Shown in pieces: positions 1 to 12,146 of a DNA stretch of 64,000 nucleotides. The stretch is from sequence record PX969468.1; one strand, 5' to 3'. The stretch comes from a phage. The translations under genes were made by a program, and so were the position numbers. The notes under the pieces were generated by a model. That model saw only the letters and a list, made by a program, of their open reading frames with translations, was not told where the DNA came from and searched no databases. Every line of letters begins with the position of its first letter. The stretch's first letter is position 1.

Positions 1-560
1 GACAAGTTTTTCTCCTCTTTGTCAAGTGCTGCATGAAAAATTTACAAACTGGTATGGTAGCATTTTTGCGGCCCTGTTTACATTCAGGAGTGTATGTATA
101 ACCCTTGTTGTGTGGGCGTTTAGACGTCTGGACGGTCAGAAGTCCGCAGGTTAATATCTAATCTATTGGTCGCTAACTATATCCCCCACAAATAATAAGA
201 AATGCAATTGTTATGTGCGTAAACAGTGACTCATGTTATCAATCCCTGTATGTATCGCCAGTGGTGCGCATAATGGGTATTATGTTAAATTGCCCGTAAT
301 GATAACTATTCTCACAATGATAGGTATTCTCATTCAACCCCGCAAAACAGGTTGCAAATGTTGTGCCACTGTGTGAACGGCCTCACCTATTAATCTGCCT
401 CACTGCCCCGATATTTGAGAATTGTTATAAGAATGAGAAGTATTCCCATTTCGTCCGCCTGGCAGCACTCCAGTCGCTACCGGCTCCTGACAGGGAAGCA
501 CTCCTGTTGGTCAGGTCAAAATCGTGGTATAACTGGGTCTATTCAGATATTTCTGGCTGA

Positions 561-1748
561 CTCTTCAGGTCTGTGTGGGAAAAGCCAACCCCTCCGGCGG
601 CTGGGAGGGGGTCAATTAAAAAATTTACGTGGTGTATGAAGCGCTCTTCAGGTAAGGCATGTATTATGGGATGAAACCCTCTTCAGGCAATGATATTTGT
701 AGGTGTGATATTTGCTGGAGAGCCAGATATGACGGGACTCCCGGCGGGGCAGGGGTAGTACAGACAGGGAAAATATGGGGATGTAGTTGGGTGAATTGAT
801 CAGGCAGGTAGAGTATGGAATATGTTACAAGTATGTTAAATATGGAGGGTGAATATCTGCAGGATTTGTGTGTAAAATCAAAGACTTAAGTAGTGTTGTG
901 GTATTTTCTATAAATAATTCAAGTTTAATAGGTAATATTTGTCTCTATCCACTTTGTGTGGTAAACAAATTCAAATGAGGTTGGTTTACAAGTGTATACA
1001 TAATATACAAATTAAAGATACAAGAAACCCCCCTCCCCCTTCGGCTACCATTCACCTTTTCCTCTGACTGGTACTTAAACACTTATTCAGACTCTTCAGG
1101 TTATCACCCATATACCATATGGCAGTGACTGGTGTCCTCCGGCCCCTCTTTCGTCACCCGTCCGCTTCGCCATGCTAATGCCATAGCCAAATGTTCGGTT
1201 GTTCACCCTGTTCACTCAGGTGTATCTCCATACCCCTTCAAACCGAAGAGAACAGAAAACCCGAATTACTCGGTAAAAGAAAAGAGAAGAACTTAATTTT
1301 ATCAGGATAGGCAAGAATGTCAAGGCATGACTGCTCACTAAACAAGCAAACAGTCATGTGTGGGAGGTAAGTGATTGTGGTGGTGGGAAATTTAGTTGAA
1401 AGATGGGTTATAGGTGCTTCCAGCACTTTAGCCGGGCAGCTAATTGTGTGTCAGTCCAGCGGTTCATCCTCTACTTCACTGAAATCAATGTTCATGGTCT
1501 CTTCCCAACCATCGATCTCAGCACAAGAGTGGAGTTATTTAGGGTTTACTCCCAAAGCCTCAGCAACAGAGTCTATATTTAACACCTCTGGCAGGTATGA
1601 TTCATCGAATTCAAGGTAAATCAGGCCACGAGTGTTGTCAGCTCCACCAAATATTTCTATCTTCATGAAATCTCCTCTGGAAATGAGAGTGTGAACAGGG
1701 TTTTATACGTTCCAATGCACTGGAATTATACACGTTTGCCTCTTCAGG
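561..1748 (+). repeat. Five same-orientation copies of the 9-mer CTCTTCAGG (561-569, 644-652, 679-687, 1092-1100, 1740-1748) in an ORF-poor region
   Basis: Read directly from the sequence. About 0.2 copies per strand would be expected by chance in 64 kb. Region 1-1240 has no convincing ORF with an RBS. Confidence 0.5.
1535..1666 (-). CDS. hypothetical small protein (43 aa)
   Basis: ATG preceded by AGGAGA at 4 nt spacing. Below the ORF-track size cutoff. MKIEIFGGADNTRGLIYLEF... Confidence 0.35.
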   Translation of the reverse strand: MKIEIFGGADNTRGLIYLEFDESYLPEVLNIDSVAEALGVNPK

Positions 1749-2359: not shown

Positions 2360-2659
2360 CTATACCCATGATGGCTTATCAAGGTTGGAGTAGCTGAAAG
2401 GTGTCAAAAGGTGACTGTCAAAATCTCTCAAACTATCCAGATCTTTTTCCTCGTCCTGACACCATCTGTGCCTGCATTTATTGTTGTAGTGCATAGAATG
2501 CATGGCGTTCTGCAACTTAACAGGCACAAGCGATTCAGGAGTAGATAGTATTGTTGGGTATGCCAGAACCACTTCAAACAGTGGAAACACATCGAAACTA
2601 AAATCTACCTCTGCAGAGGTTGATGGCATGTAGGAGTATTTAGCCGCCTTTGTAGACAT
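2360..2659 (-). CDS. hypothetical protein
   Basis: Track ORF; start moved to the ATG preceded by GAGGTGG. Confidence 0.5.
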   Translation of the reverse strand: MSTKAAKYSYMPSTSAEVDFSFDVFPLFEVVLAYPTILSTPESLVPVKLQNAMHSMHYNNKCRHRWCQDEEKDLDSLRDFDSHLLTPFSYSNLDKPSWV

Positions 2660-2667
2660 AATCCACC

Positions 2668-3000
2668 TCACACAGGTTTGATAATACCTTCACCGAATAA
2701 CTCTTCGTATCTAATCTTATCCGGATCCCACTCCTGGATAATTTCGAAGATAATATCCAACCCTGGGATAATCACTTCTCCGGTATCAAGCTTAGCAAGA
2801 ACAAAACCGGAAGGTTGAATGGTTTCCCAGTTACGGCGATCAGAATAAAATACTTCGAAAATATCACCAACCTCAATCCGTTTCTGTTGCTCAAGATGCT
2901 CAAGGTTCTCTTTCATACGGATGCAGCGGATTTTTCGTGCAGGCCATAGACCACCTGCATCACGTTCATTCAATTCTTTTACAGTGATCCGTATACCCAT
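2668..3000 (-). CDS. hypothetical protein
   Basis: Track ORF in the co-oriented minus-strand gene array. Confidence 0.5.
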   Translation of the reverse strand: MGIRITVKELNERDAGGLWPARKIRCIRMKENLEHLEQQKRIEVGDIFEVFYSDRRNWETIQPSGFVLAKLDTGEVIIPGLDIIFEIIQEWDPDKIRYEELFGEGIIKPV

Positions 3001-4069: not shown

Positions 4070-4153
4070 TCACTGAAATACAAGACACAGTGTTAAGGTT
4101 ACTGACCAGCAAATAATTAACAGTGCCGTTGCAACCTTGGCAAGATTTATCAT
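4070..4153 (-). CDS. small hydrophobic peptide (27 aa)
   Basis: ATG overlaps the stop of the upstream gene (ATGA coupling). MINLAKVATALLIICWSVTLTLCLVFQ. Confidence 0.35.
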   Translation of the reverse strand: MINLAKVATALLIICWSVTLTLCLVFQ

Positions 4154-4437
4154 AGTGCCTCTAAGATTTCATATCCTTCGGGTCGGAATACAAGCCACTC
4201 CGTGGCTCCGTTTGGTCGATACGCTTTATACAGAACAACCTGATCTCGGCACATGCACATAGCTACATAGTTTTCATCCACACCTGCAGCCTGCATTGCA
4301 GCTTCTTCTCCGGCAACTGCTTTGCTTACAACCTCCTTGGTAGGCAGGTGTGCGATCAGCTCGTCACCATCATTAATTCCAAAATGGCTGAGCTCCCCAT
4401 TGGTATCTTTAATCTTAATCTTAACCAGATCTTTCAT
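4150..4437 (-). CDS. hypothetical protein
   Basis: Track ORF; tight coupling with neighbours. Confidence 0.5.
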   Translation of the reverse strand: MKDLVKIKIKDTNGELSHFGINDGDELIAHLPTKEVVSKAVAGEEAAMQAAGVDENYVAMCMCRDQVVLYKAYRPNGATEWLVFRPEGYEILEAL

Positions 4438-4766
4438 TAGTCTTCCTCCAGGTTCAAAGGCCCTAAGATTTCATATGCCAGATTAGAAGTTACCAGAGGG
4501 TCTTCTGCATCTTTAGTATTATACCACCCGTGAATAACCAGAGTCCCACTCTGTTTCATATCCAACTGGAACTGTTCTGCAGTTTCCTCATCCATCTCTA
4601 AGATCTCCATGAGGTATTTGATGTTAGGAAGGTATGCAGCTGTTACAGTTCCCTCCACCAAACCTTCGGGCCAACCTACATCTGGATGACAAGTAGGAAC
4701 CAGGTTGGTCAGCTTAATGGTGTACGCTTTTTCTGCACGAGCCTTCAGTAACGGGTCAATCTTCAT
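4437..4766 (-). CDS. hypothetical protein
   Basis: Track ORF; overlapping stop/start with neighbours. Confidence 0.5.
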   Translation of the reverse strand: MKIDPLLKARAEKAYTIKLTNLVPTCHPDVGWPEGLVEGTVTAAYLPNIKYLMEILEMDEETAEQFQLDMKQSGTLVIHGWYNTKDAEDPLVTSNLAYEILGPLNLEED

Positions 4767-5116
4767 TATTCGTCCTCCTCTTCGGTGCCTGCTTCCAGTA
4801 ATAAGTTAAGAATATCTTCTGCACAAGGCTCATAGAACTCTTGGCCTTCATTATCGATGATTTTGTAGTCATCTCCACGAATAATCAGAGGATCACTCTC
4901 AAAATTATCGAGGCCTTTAACAACGACAACACGATCGATTGCCATCATTGTAAGAACTTTATCGACATCTTCCTCTGCTACACCATACTGCAGCAGAATG
5001 TCTTTGGTAGGAGGAACAGCATCCACCACAACGCCGTTACCAAAACCTTCCGGAAGTTTAGCTAAAATATCTTCCGGAACCACATTCACATCAAAACCGG
5101 TAATTTCTACTTTCAT
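4766..5116 (-). CDS. hypothetical small acidic protein (paralog family A)
   Basis: Track ORF; MKVEITG... N-terminus and acidic C-terminus shared with other family members. Confidence 0.5.
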   Translation of the reverse strand: MKVEITGFDVNVVPEDILAKLPEGFGNGVVVDAVPPTKDILLQYGVAEEDVDKVLTMMAIDRVVVVKGLDNFESDPLIIRGDDYKIIDNEGQEFYEPCAEDILNLLLEAGTEEEDE

Positions 5117-5365
5117 TTACAGCACCTCTTCGTCAACTAATTCATAAAAATGACCAGGAATCATGATTGGATCGTCCTCTTCCCCAATGAAGAGAGTGCC
5201 GTCCATAATTAGCATAATCATTGTTGCCGCACCATCTTCTGCAAAACTATTTACCATTTCTCGGGTAGGAATTTGTGCTTCAATGATATCCCCGTTTTTA
5301 AATGGAAAATCGAAATCGATACCTTCTAAAGCGGCCTCATCAATATTCTTAAGTTTAATTTTCAT
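5117..5365 (-). CDS. hypothetical small acidic protein (paralog family A)
   Basis: Start moved to MKIKLKN..., preceded by AGGAGA. Confidence 0.5.
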   Translation of the reverse strand: MKIKLKNIDEAALEGIDFDFPFKNGDIIEAQIPTREMVNSFAEDGAATMIMLIMDGTLFIGEEDDPIMIPGHFYELVDEEVL

Positions 5366-5445
5366 TATTAAAATCTCCTGTTTTGTTAAGATGGATGTAT
5401 TATTGCACACAGGGTTGGCGTTGTCAATACCTGTGTGCAAGAAAA

Positions 5446-5841
5446 TCACTGAAACAATGCGGATAAATTACCTTCTGGTGGGAACTTATCTGCCAAAAAC
5501 GGTGTTAGCACAGTAGCCTTCTGAAGATCTGGGGTCCACTCGTTGTTCAGAACATCCCAGTAGTACGCAATGTTGCTGTGCGGGTGCCGCATTACGAACT
5601 TTTTCCCTTCGTAGTCATCTGAAACCTCTACAGAAGAAATAACAACAGAATCTTCAAGGGTTTCTTCATAGAAAGACCCGCCTTCAAATTTCCAACGAGA
5701 TGCAAGAGCCCCTGCCTTGAACGCTGCAGATAACGGACTGTCGGCAAGAACATACATTTCTTGCACTCTGTCGCTGCGATCTTTGCTTCTTACGTTGTAC
5801 ACAGTATCTGAGCTATACTCAACACGGTATAGGCTTACCAT
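5446..5841 (-). CDS. hypothetical protein (paralog family B)
   Basis: Shares the C-terminal motif FV..HP.S....YW.....WTP with CDS 7652..8050. Confidence 0.5.
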   Translation of the reverse strand: MVSLYRVEYSSDTVYNVRSKDRSDRVQEMYVLADSPLSAAFKAGALASRWKFEGGSFYEETLEDSVVISSVEVSDDYEGKKFVMRHPHSNIAYYWDVLNNEWTPDLQKATVLTPFLADKFPPEGNLSALFQ

Positions 5842-6200
5842 TACCGCACCTCCTCAATAACTTCCACATCTGAACCCACCACAAATGCAAAAGGACAGGT
5901 TTCATGAAAGACATCCGGATCGCCGCCAAGCTTGCTAACAATTTCTCCACCACTAATAAACACAAGCTCACCGATATTCATCAGATTGCTGAAATAGTAT
6001 CCATAATGATTAAAGAATGCAGCCGGGTCAGGTAAACTAGTAGCCTCAAGTTCTACATCGTTTGAGATTACTTTCCTATCATAACCTCTCGCCTTCTGAG
6101 ATGCAAGATCTGCAGAATCTTCAGGCGACCGGAGATGCACAGGAATTGTTTCACCAATAAATCGTACTTTCATATTCTCACCCAACAACCATAGCTTCAA
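5841..6200 (-). CDS. hypothetical protein (paralog family A-like, ends ...DVEVIEEVR)
   Basis: Track ORF; C-terminus resembles 8052..8306 and 8296..8523. Confidence 0.45.
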   Translation of the reverse strand: MKLWLLGENMKVRFIGETIPVHLRSPEDSADLASQKARGYDRKVISNDVELEATSLPDPAAFFNHYGYYFSNLMNIGELVFISGGEIVSKLGGDPDVFHETCPFAFVVGSDVEVIEEVR

Positions 6201-6441
6201 AAGGAGTCATGAACGAATAAACGGCATCATCATCTGCTTCAGGGAATGCTCCCAAAGACTTCATGTCTGAGCCCTTGACAAATACAAGGTTTTGATCAAA
6301 AGCTTCTTGGGGATCAATCCGATACATATCTCGTAGAATATCGCTTACCTCCTCATCAAGAGGTGAGTATGCTGTGCACGTTTTTCCGATCAAGCTTTGA
6401 GAATCAGGGTATCCACCTGAAGTTTTAAAATAAACAATCAT
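6178..6441 (-). CDS. hypothetical protein
   Basis: Track ORF; GAGGTGAT upstream of the ATG. Confidence 0.45.
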   Translation of the reverse strand: MIVYFKTSGGYPDSQSLIGKTCTAYSPLDEEVSDILRDMYRIDPQEAFDQNLVFVKGSDMKSLGAFPEADDDAVYSFMTPFEAMVVG

Positions 6442-6536
6442 ATAGTATCACCTCTGGCAAGAGATGGGGATTCCTTTCCCACAAATAATTACAAACTTTT
6501 CTTTTTATTGAGAGAAGTATGCTAATCCAAGCAGGA

Positions 6537-6806
6537 TTACTCTTCTACAATCTCATACACATCAGGAGTTACAATCAACTCTTCTCCGTTACCCGGTGCA
6601 ACAAACACCACCAAGCCTTCAGGTGTGTGCTTTTTAGCCATCTCGATAACATCTTCTCGCAGGGCTGGCTCCATCAGATCAAAGCCTTCACCCAAGGCAT
6701 CACGAACTACTTTCATGTAGTCCACTGGTTGTGCTTCAACGATCATGCCTTCAACCAGTCCACAGTTTTTGTCTGCCAGCTCAGTTTTGAATAATTTAAT
6801 TTTCAT
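6537..6806 (-). CDS. hypothetical small acidic protein (paralog family A)
   Basis: MKIKLFKTE... start and ...YEIVEE end. Confidence 0.5.
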   Translation of the reverse strand: MKIKLFKTELADKNCGLVEGMIVEAQPVDYMKVVRDALGEGFDLMEPALREDVIEMAKKHTPEGLVVFVAPGNGEELIVTPDVYEIVEE

Positions 6807-6832
6807 TTAGAGGTCTCCTCAATTATTTGATA

Positions 6833-6934
6833 TTAATAGCCGTAACCTAACATATTAACTACAACTGCGATTGCAAACATAATTTCAAAGCATGCAATCT
6901 CTACATTTGGGACTAATTTCTTAATCACTCCCAT
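6833..6934 (-). CDS. small hydrophobic peptide (33 aa)
   Basis: ATG preceded by GAGGTG at 6 nt, immediately downstream of the HPF-like gene. MGVIKKLVPNVEIACFEIMFAIAVVVNMLGYGY. Confidence 0.4.
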   Translation of the reverse strand: MGVIKKLVPNVEIACFEIMFAIAVVVNMLGYGY

Positions 6935-6943
6935 TATAGCACC

Positions 6944-7261
6944 TCATTCTCCAAAGTCAATCTTTACTTTGCCTTTCCCCTTACCTTTCTTTCCACCGCA
7001 CTTAGCCAGCTGACGTGCTGCAACATCTACCATACGGTCAGTTGCCTCGTAAGCGTCACTGCCTTTAGCTTTGGCAATAACTTCTTTTCCGGAAGTGTCA
7101 AAAATGAACGCCATGACTTCCTGGTGATCATTTTCAACTTTTACACTTACACGTGCATGATTTACAGAAGGATGTAGACGCTCCAGTTTTGACATTTTGT
7201 GGGAAATGAAAGACACCATGCCTTCAGTGATTTCTACGTTGCCAGTGATTTCAATCTGCAT
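6944..7261 (-). CDS. ribosome hibernation promoting factor / RaiA (YfiA) family protein
   Basis: 105 aa; MQIEITGNVEITEGMVSFISHKMSKLERL... and ...DAYEATDRMVDVAARQLAK align by eye with E. coli RaiA/HPF; Lys/Gly-rich tail. Confidence 0.65.
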   Translation of the reverse strand: MQIEITGNVEITEGMVSFISHKMSKLERLHPSVNHARVSVKVENDHQEVMAFIFDTSGKEVIAKAKGSDAYEATDRMVDVAARQLAKCGGKKGKGKGKVKIDFGE

Positions 7262-7343
7262 AACGTGCTCCTTTTAAAGAAGAGGGAACCAAACCCTCTT
7301 TGAAAATAATGATACTAAAGATCAAGTGTTGTGTCAACAGTTT

Positions 7344-7634
7344 TTACAGCTTGTCGTCGATAGTTTTTAAAATATCTACTGCAAGATCTGCCATTTTACG
7401 AACATACTCTGCAAACTCAACAGGATCCTTGATCAATGAGTTCACAGGGTCATACCCTAAAGCGTTTAAAATGGCTACAGCATCCACGACCTTCTCATCA
7501 TTTGCGAAGATCTCACCGTCAAACTTGTAGGTCCATTTTGAGTCAATCTTGGCATGGCAGGATTGGTCCATGCTTATTACACCATCTTTTTTAAACGATT
7601 CGGTGTTATCAGTGTCTAAAACTAAATCCATCAT
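7344..7634 (-). CDS. hypothetical protein
   Basis: Track ORF. Confidence 0.5.
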   Translation of the reverse strand: MMDLVLDTDNTESFKKDGVISMDQSCHAKIDSKWTYKFDGEIFANDEKVVDAVAILNALGYDPVNSLIKDPVEFAEYVRKMADLAVDILKTIDDKL

Positions 7635-7651
7635 GTAAGTACCCCACTATT

Positions 7652-8050
7652 TCAGCTTATCTTTTCTTCAACAACCCCATAGCTTGGGGCAGAGTCAAGA
7701 GCTTTCTGGTTTAAAAGTGGTGTAGCAGAATCTGCAAACGGTGTCCAGGTTTTTGTTCTGGCATTCCAGTAATGCTTCACTCTAGAATCAGGATGCACTA
7801 TAACAAAAACTTTTTCACTTGTCAACACATTAATTTCTTCCACACCCTTGCTGATAATTTCTCCGTCATAGCCACCAGTCTGGTATCCTTCGTACCAGGT
7901 TCTTGCATAGGCATAGCCAGCCTGCCAGCATGCAGCCTCCTCCGAGGTGGAGACTACGTAAAAGTCTTTCTCAAATTCCGGAATACGCCCCTGCTTTACG
8001 CTCCAAGCTCCGCGAATTTTCATTGTTACTTTGAAAAGCTTGTTCTTCAT
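7652..8050 (-). CDS. hypothetical protein (paralog family B)
   Basis: Paralog of 5446..5841 (HPDSRVKHYWNARTKTWTP). Confidence 0.5.
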   Translation of the reverse strand: MKNKLFKVTMKIRGAWSVKQGRIPEFEKDFYVVSTSEEAACWQAGYAYARTWYEGYQTGGYDGEIISKGVEEINVLTSEKVFVIVHPDSRVKHYWNARTKTWTPFADSATPLLNQKALDSAPSYGVVEEKIS

Positions 8051-8051
8051 A

Positions 8052-8306
8052 CTACCGCTCTACAATCTCTACATCTGTTCCTACACCGAAGGCATAGTAA
8101 TGTTCTTCCCCAAAGTAATACTTGGGGACACCCGCTTTGATCAGATCTAACCCGCGAATAAATACCACACAGTGTGATACAGTGGAATGCTTCTGACGCA
8201 CAGGATCGTTGTCAGGCAACCATTCGAAGTATACCGCAGGTACAACCTTCCCTTTAAGAAAGGATTGCCCCAAGTAGACGTTAGAATCAAGAATTTTAAC
8301 CTTCAT
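8052..8306 (-). CDS. hypothetical small protein (paralog family A)
   Basis: MKVKILDS...GLDLIKAG...GTDVEIVER. Confidence 0.5.
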   Translation of the reverse strand: MKVKILDSNVYLGQSFLKGKVVPAVYFEWLPDNDPVRQKHSTVSHCVVFIRGLDLIKAGVPKYYFGEEHYYAFGVGTDVEIVER

Positions 8307-8523
8307 GATCGTCCTCCACTATCTCTACATCCTCACCTAGGGCAAAGTTGTAGGCCCACTGGCTGTCAAAGCAGTCCTGAGATGCTCCAGCGGCAATAAG
8401 ATCTGCACCCTTTATTTTTAAAAGGTCAGGATAATCTTCGTTAGGGACAGCGGTAAACACTTTACCCACTAAAGGCTCCTGACCAATATAGAAGCTTGAA
8501 TCTAAAACTTTAACTTTCATCAA
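8296..8523 (-). CDS. hypothetical small protein (paralog family A)
   Basis: MMKVKVLDS...GADLIAAG...GEDVEIVEDD; tandem duplicate of 8052..8306. Confidence 0.5.
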   Translation of the reverse strand: MMKVKVLDSSFYIGQEPLVGKVFTAVPNEDYPDLLKIKGADLIAAGASQDCFDSQWAYNFALGEDVEIVEDDHEG

Positions 8524-8804
8524 CGGTCTCCCTCAGGTGGTTGGGGGACGTAAACACTGTTACGAATCTCATCAGCGGTGTAGTAGCAGGTTTTTCCAGC
8601 CCTGTCCCTAGCAGCAATATATTCAGCTATACCTACAAGCGCCATGGCTTTGGTAGCATATCTCCCTAATTCATCTGCTCCCCAGTAGAATTTAGACCAA
8701 TATGGGATAAGTCCAAACAAATATACCTTTTGTCTCACTTCCCAATAGGTCTCTTTACTACACACCTTGAACTCCACATCTGTATCGCAAATCTTTTTCA
8801 TCAC
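8520..8804 (-). CDS. hypothetical protein
   Basis: Track ORF trimmed to the internal ATG (MKKICDTD...) that overlaps the upstream stop as ATGA. Confidence 0.45.
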   Translation of the reverse strand: MMKKICDTDVEFKVCSKETYWEVRQKVYLFGLIPYWSKFYWGADELGRYATKAMALVGIAEYIAARDRAGKTCYYTADEIRNSVYVPQPPEGDR

Positions 8805-9097
8805 TGCCCCTCTTCTGTGGTTGGATTGGTAGTAAGATATTGTGCATTGGCCGGAGGTACACCAGACATCTTCCACACAATCATACATTTATACCCAGGA
8901 ATTCTCCTAAAAGATGCTCCTGAGGTATCCGTGCAGGAATATTTCCGTTTACCGAACCCGTTCTCAAGCATGATCCAGTATCCCGTGTCTTTATCACCTG
9001 GAATTGGTAATCCCTCATCGTCCACCCACTGAATGGACCACGGCACGATGGCTACAGCTTTATATTTAAACTTTTTAAACCACTCAAAAAGTTTCAT
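8801..9097 (-). CDS. hypothetical protein
   Basis: Track ORF. Confidence 0.45.
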   Translation of the reverse strand: MKLFEWFKKFKYKAVAIVPWSIQWVDDEGLPIPGDKDTGYWIMLENGFGKRKYSCTDTSGASFRRIPGYKCMIVWKMSGVPPANAQYLTTNPTTEEGQ

Positions 9098-9100
9098 AAT

Positions 9101-9190
9101 TCAGCCTCGCATAGACATAATCACTATAAACAGGCAAACAATGAATCCGAATGCCACGCCACCCATAAACGTTAATATTGATGCAATCAT
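9101..9190 (-). CDS. small hydrophobic peptide (29 aa)
   Basis: MIASILTFMGGVAFGFIVCLFIVIMSMRG; only a weak RBS. Confidence 0.3.
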   Translation of the reverse strand: MIASILTFMGGVAFGFIVCLFIVIMSMRG

Positions 9191-9192
9191 AG

Positions 9193-9378
9193 TCAATCAG
9201 TCTCGCTTGGCAACTCTTCCACCTTAACATGCCGAAAAGTGTTACCGTAATGGTTGATCCATGACATCAGCTCACTTTCTTGCTCTTCCTCTGGAATGAA
9301 CTCTCGAATACTGACAAGTTTTAAGAAAACCCAATCACAATCTGCACCCATTCTACCAGACAGACAATAGTGCTTCAT
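9193..9378 (-). CDS. hypothetical protein
   Basis: Track ORF. Confidence 0.4.
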   Translation of the reverse strand: MKHYCLSGRMGADCDWVFLKLVSIREFIPEEEQESELMSWINHYGNTFRHVKVEELPSETD

Positions 9379-9397
9379 AAAAACCCTCCATCCTGGT

Positions 9398-9598
9398 TTA
9401 GAATACTGCCTCTTTTAATGATCCAAGGAGCAGCAGGTGTGAAATCTGATCCACATTCATGGTAGATTCAATCTCCTCTCCTTTGAAAGGTTCTCGGCAA
9501 AACAGTACTACATTCGGGTTTTCGCTACGCACTATATAATACAGATCGTTCAAATAATTCTCATAGTAGGTATTAAATTTAAGAATTTTGTCACTCAT
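9398..9598 (-). CDS. hypothetical protein
   Basis: Track ORF. Confidence 0.45.
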   Translation of the reverse strand: MSDKILKFNTYYENYLNDLYYIVRSENPNVVLFCREPFKGEEIESTMNVDQISHLLLLGSLKEAVF

Positions 9599-9882
9599 TT
9601 TCTACTCCTCTTCTTAGATTTTTGGGGAGAAACGCTTTCTGCAATACGAGACAAACGTTCTTCTGAAGCCTTGCCTATTCCAGGTTTTTTGAGTGGATTA
9701 TCTTTATGACCACAATCCAATTGGATATCGGATACCTCTCCAACCTTGTAAGTCAATTCTAGCAAAAGGTTGTCGTCCTTGTCAAATGTTTTTACGATAA
9801 ATTTTTTATCGTCCTCCTGAACCTCATATCGGGTACCTGCAGTATACAGCATGGTGCCATCAGTATAGGATATCCAGATCAT
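9595..9882 (-). CDS. hypothetical protein (basic C-terminus)
   Basis: Track ORF; overlapping stop/start. Confidence 0.45.
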   Translation of the reverse strand: MIWISYTDGTMLYTAGTRYEVQEDDKKFIVKTFDKDDNLLLELTYKVGEVSDIQLDCGHKDNPLKKPGIGKASEERLSRIAESVSPQKSKKRSRK

Positions 9883-10226
9883 TGAGCCTCCTTCTGCTGC
9901 AACAGCATTAACTCTTTGTTAGAGATCTTTACTGCTGTTTTTATTGTTCCATCTTCACGGAACCACGACCAGAACTCTACAGTGTCACCACTATCAAGCA
10001 AAGCATGCCCATGGTAAAAATCCTTGTCCTTAGACAGTTTCTCATCTATATCTGCATCAACACATTCGTGATCCATAGCATTTTGCCTGAATGCATCGGT
10101 TATGCCAATGCATGCCTTGCTCTCAAGACTGGTATATCCGATATCTTTTAATTCAGTTTCCCAAGTCCAGTATCCTACAAAAGCTACAACAGCTGCCCAC
10201 ATTAATACCGACTTAATCTTTGGCAT
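9879..10226 (-). CDS. hypothetical membrane-anchored protein
   Basis: N-terminal TM helix (VLMWAAVVAFVGYWTW). Confidence 0.45.
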   Translation of the reverse strand: MPKIKSVLMWAAVVAFVGYWTWETELKDIGYTSLESKACIGITDAFRQNAMDHECVDADIDEKLSKDKDFYHGHALLDSGDTVEFWSWFREDGTIKTAVKISNKELMLLQQKEAQ

Positions 10227-10286
10227 TCTCTCTACCTCTTTCTTAGTTTATTTAATCATGGCACATCCTTTGTGCCTTGTTGCACA

Positions 10287-10748
10287 CTACTTGAACAACA
10301 GTTCAAGATAGTGCAAAATTAACAGAAGTTGAATTACGCCTAGCACAACGGCGAGTATGTTAATCTTAGAATCAAAAAACTTCTTAACTTTTACCCTAAA
10401 AGGCTCTTTAATGTCCTTTACGATCCTATTTATAGATGATTTCATATCCCTGATTACCATCCTAAACATTAGAGACGGATCCTCCTTCTCTGTAACAGAA
10501 TCGAAAACATACTCTCTTCGGTCATAAGGCCCTCCAGATCTGCGTATTAACCTCTCCACAGAGACCTCGTACGACACACCTGTAACGTAATCATCTATGA
10601 CAAGTAGTGACGGGTCTTTATCATCCAAGGGTATCAAAGTTATCTTTCCAGATTTTGTTAAAATTTCTCCTTTTTCAAGCAAGGTGTACCAATGCTCTCT
10701 ACCAAGGTTGTTGAGGCACGTTTTTACATATTTAACAAACATCGTCAC
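10287..10748 (-). CDS. hypothetical protein with C-terminal TM helix
   Basis: Track ORF; hydrophobic C-terminus (ILAVVLGVIQLLLILHYL). Confidence 0.45.
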   Translation of the reverse strand: MTMFVKYVKTCLNNLGREHWYTLLEKGEILTKSGKITLIPLDDKDPSLLVIDDYVTGVSYEVSVERLIRRSGGPYDRREYVFDSVTEKEDPSLMFRMVIRDMKSSINRIVKDIKEPFRVKVKKFFDSKINILAVVLGVIQLLLILHYLELLFK

Positions 10749-10948
10749 CCCTCATCACACGTCTGATATAACCATTCTATGAAATCTTGATACCACTCTC
10801 CCTCTGAGCGCTCCGTAGGCCAATAATCTTCCCCCTCTCTTGCATTAAAATCTGAGTATTCGACTTTCCACTCCTTTACCAGCTCGTGGAGAAGGTTTTC
10901 AGCCTGTTCTAAGGATTTATTTTTTGTCATTACTGTCCCCTTTTTCAA
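10745..10948 (-). CDS. hypothetical protein
   Basis: Track ORF; start could be the internal MTKNK. Confidence 0.4.
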   Translation of the reverse strand: MKKGTVMTKNKSLEQAENLLHELVKEWKVEYSDFNAREGEDYWPTERSEGEWYQDFIEWLYQTCDEG

Positions 10949-11036
10949 GATAATTATACATTAGTGCCGCACCACCCAAAATGGCTACCAGCAGTAATAC
11001 TCCGGAGAGCATTTCAATAAACATGGCTTGAAACAT
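10917..11036 (-). CDS. small hydrophobic peptide (39 aa)
   Basis: ATG preceded by GAGGGG at 8 nt. MFQAMFIEMLSGVLLLVAILGGAALMYNYLEKGDSNDKK. Confidence 0.4.
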   Translation of the reverse strand: MFQAMFIEMLSGVLLLVAILGGAALMYNYLEKGDSNDKK

Positions 11037-11150
11037 TAGAAGGTCCCCTCTAATTTCACGCACCATTTTAAATACACACTCTTTTCCCATGAAGATACTG
11101 AACTAAGGTCTGTATAGAATGCAATCTCCCTAAGAACAGTATAAACAGTT

Positions 11151-11387
11151 TCAGTCACTGTTACCATTCTTATCTGCCTCCTTCATTTTTCTGACGGTTT
11201 TACAGTGATCTACCAAGCACATAACAACAATGAAGAGAACGACAGGCCAAAAAGGTGCGGCAGTGATTATAGTTATAAAGTCGTCAAACTTAATTTTTCT
11301 ACAAGATATGATGCAAAGAGTTGCTAAAACAACCATTGTCAGAAAGGTCAATGCGCAATACCAAACCAACACAGTATCTATGGCCAT
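11151..11387 (-). CDS. small membrane protein, two TM helices, charged C-terminus (holin-like topology)
   Basis: Hydrophobicity pattern only; not adjacent to the endolysin. Confidence 0.4.
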   Translation of the reverse strand: MAIDTVLVWYCALTFLTMVVLATLCIISCRKIKFDDFITIITAAPFWPVVLFIVVMCLVDHCKTVRKMKEADKNGNSD

Positions 11388-11388
11388 A

Positions 11389-11916
11389 TTACATCTCCTG
11401 GTTCAAACTGTTAAGAAAGGATACTCTGTCTTCGCTATTTTTCTCTGTGATATACCTTCCAAACATGGAAAGAATCACATGCTTCAAGTAATCTTTTTCT
11501 GGGTCGCTTAGATGATTGCGTGGCTTTATTTCCACATCATGGTAGTCATACAATCCACAATCATGATACCCCCAGTATCGACACACCTCAATACTGATCG
11601 GGAGTTTTTTGTCACACGAAACTTTCCAACGGGTTACGTTGTTACCAGGGGATAAATCCTCGCCCACCTTCACGAATGACAAATCGTAATTCATAAACTT
11701 TTCGTACAGTTTAAGTACAAAACCCTCTACCTGTGGAGAAACACCAGCCACTAGCTGGGCGTATCTATATTTACTTTCAATAATTTTTCGGCGCTTTGCT
11801 GTAAGGTTTATTGCAGCAATTTGACTCTCTGAGTATCTCCAAGGCTTATATATAAATGCTTTCGGGTCTTTATCGCCATAAAAATCTTTCCAATCAACCA
11901 GTAGCATACCTGTCAC
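11389..11916 (-). CDS. hypothetical protein
   Basis: Track ORF. Confidence 0.5.
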   Translation of the reverse strand: MTGMLLVDWKDFYGDKDPKAFIYKPWRYSESQIAAINLTAKRRKIIESKYRYAQLVAGVSPQVEGFVLKLYEKFMNYDLSFVKVGEDLSPGNNVTRWKVSCDKKLPISIEVCRYWGYHDCGLYDYHDVEIKPRNHLSDPEKDYLKHVILSMFGRYITEKNSEDRVSFLNSLNQEM

Positions 11917-12146
11917 TCCTCCACAACTTCAAGGCCTTTGCCGCCTCGTTCTGGTAGATTACTTAAAGACAGGTAATACGTATAGTCAGGAGAGATCCTG
12001 CCAGACTCTGCACCTGCAGATAGTAAATCTTTTCCCTTAACCATGACAACATTATCGTTTGCAGATAGTCGTTTTGCTTCCACAATTTTACCAACGCAGT
12101 CAACCAAGGAAGGGTACCCTAAATCTGTAAGAAATTTAACTTTCAT
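11913..12146 (-). CDS. hypothetical small protein (paralog family A)
   Basis: MKVKFLTDL...GKDLLSAG...GLEVVEE. Confidence 0.5.
   Translation of the reverse strand: MKVKFLTDLGYPSLVDCVGKIVEAKRLSANDNVVMVKGKDLLSAGAESGRISPDYTYYLSLSNLPERGGKGLEVVEE

Follow-up and report, generated by a model that had tools for sequence, protein, structure and literature searches.

In the 64,000-nucleotide stretch of phage DNA analyzed here (sequence record PX969468.1; "the window" below is this whole stretch), twelve small accessory genes annotated as "hypothetical" and lying within ~8 kb reduce to three families, A (five genes), B (five genes) and C (two genes), with two predicted barrel scaffolds. With a probability that we put at about 0.55, these are old families of small accessory proteins, mostly acidic barrels, that act as host-specific factors by binding host proteins. 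Public transposon-insertion sequencing (Tn-seq) data of a related phage indicate that the orthologs of four of the genes (6178, 5841, 5446 and 7652) are required on a uropathogenic strain, which makes these four candidate host-range or anti-defense genes.

Three families in one block of small genes

The phage is a Vequintavirus (rV5-like, infecting E. coli), and its stretch from 4 to 12.6 kb is 91–97% identical to more than 100 rV5-like Escherichia phages, ECML-10 and JES2013 being the nearest relatives of that stretch. The minus strand carries every gene from ~1.8 to ~41.4 kb, and genes are named here by the low-coordinate end of their minus-strand open reading frame (ORF), in window positions. 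The family genes have the product name "hypothetical protein" in all GenBank records examined, and their counterparts in rV5 are gp122, gp135–137 and gp141–149. Nine of them had been listed in an earlier note made from the sequence alone; all nine coordinates are low-coordinate ends of real minus-strand ORFs, and three starts were corrected, each with a Shine-Dalgarno sequence before it (5117–5365, 5841–6173 and 8296–8520). The region is also 90–99% identical to 18 GenBank "Campylobacter phage" records (MG0656xx series, listed host C. jejuni), whose host labels are doubtful.

All 35 minus-strand genes between 1.8 and 13.7 kb were compared with one another. Composition-corrected BLASTP linked 8296 to 8052 (43% identity, E=1e-15) and to 11913 (E=1.7e-6), 8052 to 5841 (E=5e-4), 5117 to 4766 (E=5e-5), and 5446 to 7652 (28% identity over 119 residues, E=7e-10). 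The same pairs stood out in Smith-Waterman alignments against 300 shuffles, with z scores of 25 (8296/8052), 15.6 (8296/11913), 8.9 (8052/5841), 9.2 (5117/4766) and 14.1 (5446/7652), and the shuffles also recruited 6178, 4150, 4437 and 6537. We then used per-gene profiles made from orthologs of rV5, EcoIv14a_Aya and a metagenomic sister clade together with database matches. Across all 595 gene pairs, hhalign returned only three groups, A, B and C. When each member was left out in turn, A members were recovered at 95.9–99.6% and B members at 92–97%, compared with at most 1.5% against A or B for 17 control genes of the same block; a profile scan of the whole window found exactly five A and five B genes.

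The earlier note had placed seven of the proteins in one family sharing a start and an acidic end. Their similarity is borne out by BLASTP, the shuffles and the leave-one-out tests, but they split between two families, 11913, 8296, 8052 and 5841 falling in A and 6537, 5117 and 4766 in B; moreover, 6178, 4437 and 4150 had been overlooked. The second pair that it proposed, 5446 and 7652, is indeed related: the two match each other by hhalign at 97%, and both match phrog_7379 (Table 1). Between A and B, hhalign gave a non-significant probability of 5–13% (E 0.002–0.007) over the first 27 residues only, all hmmsearch cross-matches had E>0.2, and a broader A profile, tried as a bridge, left the link non-significant. 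Common descent of A and B is plausible, at roughly even odds, given the same predicted fold class, insertion site and neighborhood, but is not demonstrated.

The five A and five B genes recur, in unchanged order, in six other Vequintavirus genomes. The same ten are present, again in that order, in a sister-clade contig, where each paralog has its own ortholog at 28–74% identity. Within the genus, the Nei-Gojobori ratio of nonsynonymous to synonymous substitution rates (dN/dS) is 0.04–0.14 for all A and B genes but 5117, where it is 0.30, and the median for A and B (0.08) does not differ from that of neighboring genes (0.11; Mann-Whitney p=0.65). Separate sister-clade orthologs and low dN/dS together indicate old duplications in which each copy has been individually maintained, which speaks for separate roles without redundancy and not for an array still engaged in an arms race. 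The arrays had been described as diversifying, with copy number among related phages proposed as a check; copy number instead proved fixed in every genome examined, and substitution rates match those of the neighbors, with 5117 and 8052 as exceptions. A tblastn search with 8296 gave 234 places in 118 phage records, about two per genome, which we read as the adjacent 8296/8052 pair counted once plus 11913.

As to the exceptions, the window allele of 5117 is rare: just 2 of 120 phage records (MiataMamis among them) have it at 99% identity or more, and it shares 50–59% identity with the common allele, while the flanking genes are 98–100% identical. Its first seven and last ~12 residues are conserved and the middle is replaced, which points to a localized allelic replacement. 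Gene 8052 occurs in three allele classes that are 77–83% identical.

A few copies show damage. Gene 4150 is intact (95 residues) in the window and in most relatives and appears in rV5 as two overlapping ORFs (L006, 10099–10369), a gp148/gp149 split that indicates a frameshift or a sequencing error. A few genomes have 7652 in truncated or fused form, and it is missing from the sister clade; an 8052-like copy is truncated in one sister-clade contig. A 96-residue sister-clade gene at the position of 7652 was considered as a diverged C member and turned out on testing to be unrelated. Such lesions, and the tolerance of transposon insertions on laboratory strain K-12 by all the orthologs, are what would be expected if the genes were redundant, decaying duplicates without a current function. 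We regard this as very improbable, since purifying selection already contradicts it; the separate orthologs of every A and B paralog and the conditional requirement for four of the genes tell against it as well.

Predicted fold and end motifs

AlphaFold2, run on the family alignments, modeled 8296 (A) with a mean predicted local distance difference test score (pLDDT) of 91.3 and a predicted template modeling score of 0.79, placing strands at residues 2–5, 21–23, 33–37, 56–61 and 65–69 and a short helix at 38–43. The model of 5117 (B; pLDDT 82.2) has the same strand order, with two helices between strands 2 and 3. A and B are thus predicted to be single-domain, SH3-like, five-stranded small beta-barrels. 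The insertions of the A proteins 8052, 6178 and 5841 fall at the same site as the B helices, and the paralogs differ chiefly in these strand 2–3 insertions and in their loops. Searches of Pfam (SH3, KOW and LSm families included) brought none of the ten A and B proteins, nor any of 37 aligned family A proteins, to a curated cut-off; sequence searches of NCBIfam and the Protein Data Bank gave nothing above threshold and no solved relative.

In these models, the MK(V/I)K start corresponds to strand 1 and the (V/Y)E(I/V)VE end to strand 5. The first and last strands of SH3-type barrels pair with each other, and such a pairing of strands 1 and 5 would explain the alternating hydrophobic and charged residues at both ends. 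The end motif proposed for 4766 is not at its end: the strand (DDYKIID) lies inside the protein, ahead of an acidic tail of 28 residues.

These end features also bear on whether the families are real at all, the likeness being conceivably compositional or convergent (MK starts, amphipathic end strands and glutamate tails forced by ribosome-binding sites). Of 100 window genes, 17 start with MK. In 8296, 5841, 5117, 4766 and 4437, the GGAGG-type ribosome-binding site of the following gene reaches into the last codons, and where genes abut these codons serve as a translation signal as well (e.g., 8296–8306, 5841–5850, 4766–4775 and 4437–4446). Across the window, aspartate or glutamate (D/E) makes up 31% of the last five residues in genes that stop within 5 nucleotides of the next start and 16% in all other genes (p=0.003); leaving out the 12 family genes gives 24% and 16% (one-sided p=0.04). 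When the last codons of an upstream ORF encode the next ribosome-binding site, the C-terminus becomes enriched in glutamate and aspartate, and "acidic tail" motifs arise spuriously in this way. Where phage genes are tightly packed, shared MK starts and acid-rich ends are in part by-products of translation signals and barrel closure. This could account only for the apparent link between A and B, which is not significant anyway. As an explanation of the families themselves it is hardly credible: within A, B and C, the similarity goes beyond composition, spanning the whole domain and surviving shuffles, composition-corrected BLAST and the leave-one-out tests, with the controls at background.

A reported requirement for the orthologs of four family genes on a clinical isolate

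A 2025 preprint on HIDEN-SEQ (10.1101/2025.11.20.689424) reports transposon-insertion sequencing of phage Bas54 (Extended Data Table 8). Bas54 is phage MaxBurger, as identified from its locus tags, and its genes were matched to those of the window by BLASTP (Table 1). In the K-12 reference library, nine of the twelve orthologs are classed as "Non-essential" and three (0151–0153) as "Intermediate" (10.1101/2025.11.20.689424). In the comparison of K-12 BW25113 with the uropathogenic strain CFE311, insertions went to zero in 0150, 0151 and 0152 (log2 fold changes of −6.77, −6.17 and −7.16, adjusted p<1e-5), and those in 0157 dropped 4.4-fold (log2 fold change −2.14, adjusted p<1e-5). The change in 0153 was not significant (log2 fold change −2.78), and the remaining seven orthologs, including 0166 (11913), were unaffected on CFE311 (10.1101/2025.11.20.689424).

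Tolerance on K-12 combined with a requirement on a clinical isolate is the pattern expected for host-specific or anti-defense factors. Nor are the four genes random members of their families. Three of them, 6178 and 5841 (both A) and 5446 (C), lie side by side; the fourth, 7652, is the other C gene and follows the other A pair. The presumably co-transcribed genes upstream, 0155 (a ribosome hibernation factor) and 0154, showed no depletion on CFE311, and 0155 also tolerates insertions on K-12 (10.1101/2025.11.20.689424); this argues against simple polarity, and the HIDEN-SEQ authors report little polarity overall (10.1101/2025.11.20.689424).

Two strong sigma-70-type promoters were found in the block, at the positions of P144 and P150 annotated in rV5. 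From its sequence, the first (7309–7337) likely starts the transcript of the hibernation-factor gene, which lies directly behind it, and of 6537, 6178, 5841 and 5446 further downstream; the second (5399–5427) likely does so for 5117, 4766, 4437 and 4150. According to the rV5 genome paper, the block belongs to one transcription unit with the nucleotide-metabolism genes; the paper does not mention the paralogs. A search for a published transcriptome found none. The earlier note had seen host-takeover or anti-defense paralogs in tandem in an early region; the tandem arrangement behind sigma-70-type promoters holds, and the Tn-seq pattern is as expected, while the early timing of the block is inferred.

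Taken together, host RNA polymerase would transcribe the family genes along with the hibernation factor, and the mostly acidic barrels (isoelectric point, pI, of 4.05–4.8 in eight of the ten A and B proteins) most likely serve as protein-binding modules, each neutralizing or redirecting a different host factor. On CFE311, the 6178-5841-5446 trio, and in part 7652, would be needed to overcome a strain-specific immunity or another host barrier. Protein binding and an anti-defense role are both presumptive.

Several points weigh against this interpretation. Eight of the twelve orthologs have no significant phenotype on CFE311 (10.1101/2025.11.20.689424). The Tn-seq evidence is one experiment in a preprint, and only one clinical strain is readable, as the sheet "resampling_K-12_vs_CFE303" repeats the console line and the values of the CFE311 sheet (sheets S6 and S7). 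Partial polarity within 0152-0151-0150 may contribute, and the need for these genes on a clinical isolate could have its cause in the physiology of the host instead of in immunity. Early timing is presumptive, and some members are not acidic (pI 6.8 for 8052, 7.8 for 7652 and 5.4 for 11913). Finally, no binding partner, defense system or biochemical activity is known for any member.

The order A-A-C occurs twice (8296-8052-7652 and 6178-5841-5446), which would fit the duplication of a three-gene cassette, a speculative idea. By hhalign, the closest pairings across the triplets are of 5841 to 8052 and, marginally, of 6178 to 8296; on the other hand, 8296 and 8052 resemble each other more closely than they do their putative counterparts. 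One could go further and see in the triplets duplicated three-component counter-defense cassettes, in which A proteins would be adaptors for C and each cassette would act against a different immunity system of pathogenic E. coli, the four-gene B array forming a second adaptor set. We think this improbable, although, if true, it would define a new modular class of anti-defense systems on a small beta-barrel scaffold that also occurs singly in T4-like phages and lambdoid prophages.

The HIDEN-SEQ authors followed up only bas54_0063 and bas54_0140, both of which counter the predicted system DS-28; knockouts showed bas54_0140 to be needed, with a MoxR ATPase, to overcome DS-28 of CFE311 (10.1101/2025.11.20.689424). 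Its window ortholog lies beyond the family cluster (Table 1).

Two side observations came from the comparison with Bas54. Window positions 1–1450, which hold few ORFs, align with part of the intergenic region of ~2 kb that separates bas54_0134 from bas54_0135, for which the HIDEN-SEQ authors report zero transposon insertions (10.1101/2025.11.20.689424), so the counterpart of this segment may be an essential non-coding locus. Bas54 also lacks window positions 8861–10712, a block of ~1.85 kb whose extent is given as 8801 to 10287. Among its genes is the ortholog of a predominant rV5 "virion structural protein" identified by mass spectrometry, which is therefore dispensable in a viable relative.

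Table 1 Family genes, promoters and related features of the block. Coordinates are window positions; identities are to the Bas54 ortholog; percentages under profile matches are from leave-one-out hhalign unless stated otherwise.
Feature	Coordinates	Strand	Length	rV5	Bas54 ortholog (identity)	Profile matches	Remarks
Family A	11913..12146	-	77 aa	gp122	bas54_0166 (95%)	98.8%; phrog_5009 E=8.5e-36	Isolated from other copies
Family A, minimal form	8296..8520	-	74 aa	gp135	bas54_0159 (95%)	phrog_5009 E=2.9e-38	11-nt overlap with 8052
Family A	8052..8306	-	84 aa	gp136	bas54_0158 (80%)	phrog_5009 E=5.1e-27	Short insertion between strands 2 and 3
Family C	7652..8050	-	132 aa	gp137	bas54_0157 (98%)	phrog_7379 E=1e-73	Directly after A pair 8296-8052
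Sigma-70-type promoter	7309..7337	-					TTGACA, 17 nt, TATCAT; 11/12 in consensus scan
Ribosome hibernation factor, RaiA/HPF type	6944..7261	-				Pfam Ribosomal_S30AE E=4e-13	Behind consensus sigma-70 promoter
Family B	6537..6806	-	89 aa	gp141	bas54_0153 (99%)	92%, E=6e-7	Own PHROG, 11868
Family A	6178..6441	-	87 aa	gp142	bas54_0152 (99%)	96.7%, E=3e-10; phrog_5009 weak, E=1.2e-4	~20-residue insertion between strands 2 and 3
Family A, divergent	5841..6173	-	110 aa	gp143	bas54_0151 (95%)	95.9%; broad A profile 97.1%, E=6e-11 (hhalign)	MKVRF first strand retained; long insertion; C-terminal half clearly A-type
Family C	5446..5841	-	131 aa	gp144	bas54_0150 (99%)	phrog_7379 E=2e-66	Directly after A pair 6178-5841
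Sigma-70-type promoter, extended -10	5399..5427	-					TTGACA, 17 nt, TG-n-AATAAT; 11/12 with TG in consensus scan
Family B, minimal form	5117..5365	-	82 aa	gp145	bas54_0149 (52%)		First gene behind promoter; rare allele
Family B	4766..5116	-	116 aa	gp146	bas54_0148 (100%)	96%	28-residue acidic C-terminal extension; pI 4.05; 25% D/E; 28% identity to sister-clade ortholog
Family B	4437..4766	-	109 aa	gp147	bas54_0147 (97%)	92.9%	N-terminal extension
Family B	4150..4437	-	95 aa	gp148+gp149	bas54_0146 (99%)	95%	
bas54_0140 ortholog	2360..2671	-	103 aa		bas54_0140 (99%)		~1.5 kb beyond cluster

Distribution and comparison with known systems

For family A, an exhaustive profile search of 1.84 billion cluster representatives returned only 42 proteins at E<=0.001. 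These relatives mostly have 63–87 residues, a few having the domain two or three times in tandem or a C-terminal region in addition, and the family consensus reads MKVKLLxxGGYxG...GKxVxA...IxGxxLIxxGA...YxF...ExExxEE. Each of the 37 family A proteins in the alignment (four window proteins and 33 relatives) matched PHROG 5009, of unknown function, with full-length matches for 8296, 11913 and 8052 (residues 1–74 or 1–84); 5841 had no match at E<=0.01. No B or C protein matched it: the B members each fall in a PHROG of their own (12794, 12457, 12155, 12359 and 11868), and the C members share theirs.

Outside the genus, family A is found in the T4-like phage RB49, where ORF073c, ORF074c and two weaker copies lie among the small ORFs between dam and gene 38, a region described as hyperplastic. 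Other carriers are Iodobacter phage phiPLPE and IMG/VR contigs of ~48 kb, most of which have a single copy. In a lambdoid E. coli prophage, one copy lies between the Q antiterminator and the holin, an interval that is a classic position of accessory "moron" genes. Only Vequintavirus-like phages have the five-copy state, a single copy being usual elsewhere, and no C-like gene was found beside A homologs in other phages.

One 1580-bp metagenome contig (L034) carries a chimeric family A gene, its positions 203–340 and 309–1580 having been compared with window 8415–7155. The 5′ two-thirds of the gene are 91% identical to the lambdoid-prophage copy (L032), the 3′ third and the downstream genes are 87% identical to the window, and the junction lies in the conserved stretch coding for GADLIAAGA. 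Its presence in two independent samples suggests recombination between a prophage and a lytic phage, with an assembly chimera as the alternative. A fusion of 4437 with a DUF7399 domain (P0072) was dismissed as the product of a 657-bp contig.

The exhaustive profile search covered family A only; the distribution of B and C comes from word-indexed homolog searches and tblastn. By these, family C is confined to the Vequintavirus-like lineage and family B to Vequintavirus-like genomes, except for a structural match to an 86-residue protein of Vibrio phage Vc1 (TM score 0.77, 28% identity). Word-indexed searches with the A, B and C alignments found only Vequintavirus-like orthologs and no functional leads. 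Against phages, tblastn with 8296, 5117 and 7652 stayed within the genus, save for one marginal 5117 fragment on an unclassified fecal phage contig (E=0.6).

What was found is real but of an ordinary kind, old paralog families of accessory genes. The analysis adds an anatomy clearer than the sequence-only note could show, along with experimental data, so far unexploited, that point to a host-specific role of 4 of the 12 genes. Vequintaviruses, abundant E. coli phages with a broad host range, go into cocktails for biocontrol and therapy, yet they plate poorly on clinical isolates. Our results also suggest that PHROG 5009 proteins of other phages and of prophages may do similar work.

Among known groups, PHROG 5009 (with the related phrog_13367 and phrog_8603) matches family A and itself has no function, Pfam counterpart or solved structure. 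Cellular SH3, KOW, PsaE and integrase C-terminal-domain barrels share 5–24% identity with the family proteins and no Pfam match, a likeness at the level of the fold only.

A closer parallel is offered by the GoF/MotB.1/Frd.2 set of T4, several early, non-essential paralogs with an SH3/LSm-like N-terminal barrel that were found through deep searches and AlphaFold (PMC12152347). As in that set, several early or accessory paralogs with a predicted five-stranded barrel, dispensable under laboratory conditions and too diverged for BLAST, reside in one large lytic myovirus; unlike it, A and B have no linker and separate C-terminal domain, 8296 (74 residues) and 5117 (82 residues) being single-domain and only 4766 tailed. 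Profiles of A and B against these three T4 proteins gave hmmsearch E>0.2 and, at best, an hhalign probability of 6.4% over 12 columns of the GoF C-terminal domain. We therefore rejected membership of A and B in that family and consider it an analogous case.

The parallel raises the question of whether the barrels, encoded alongside a hibernation factor, could be RNA-binding post-transcriptional regulators of mRNA stability or translation, as proposed for the T4 proteins. We judge this unlikely. The strong acidity of most members is unfavorable for nucleic-acid binding, the RNA effect of GoF is seen only in a gain-of-function mutant, a strain-specific need fits a general role in gene expression poorly, and no sequence relation to the T4 proteins was detected.

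Like Ocr, ArdA and Arn, the family proteins are small, acidic and non-essential phage proteins, of different folds. Ocr and Arn have documented early expression, which in A and B is no more than inferred. Acidic barrels that mimic DNA and block restriction or other DNA-targeting defenses would fit the small size, the acidity, the host-type promoters with presumably early expression, and the dispensability on a restriction-deficient laboratory strain. The difference in fold speaks against such mimicry, as does the report that Vequintavirinae are highly sensitive to restriction of types II and III, and we give this explanation little chance.

Host-specific factors that bind host proteins, the interpretation we favor, have a counterpart in bas54_0140. 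This gene is not homologous to A, B or C by all-vs-all hhalign, and its target, unlike theirs, has been validated by knockout. It nonetheless belongs to the same block of small genes behind sigma-70-type promoters, and in the screen it behaves as the orthologs of the four family genes do, accepting insertions on K-12 and being conditionally essential on CFE311.

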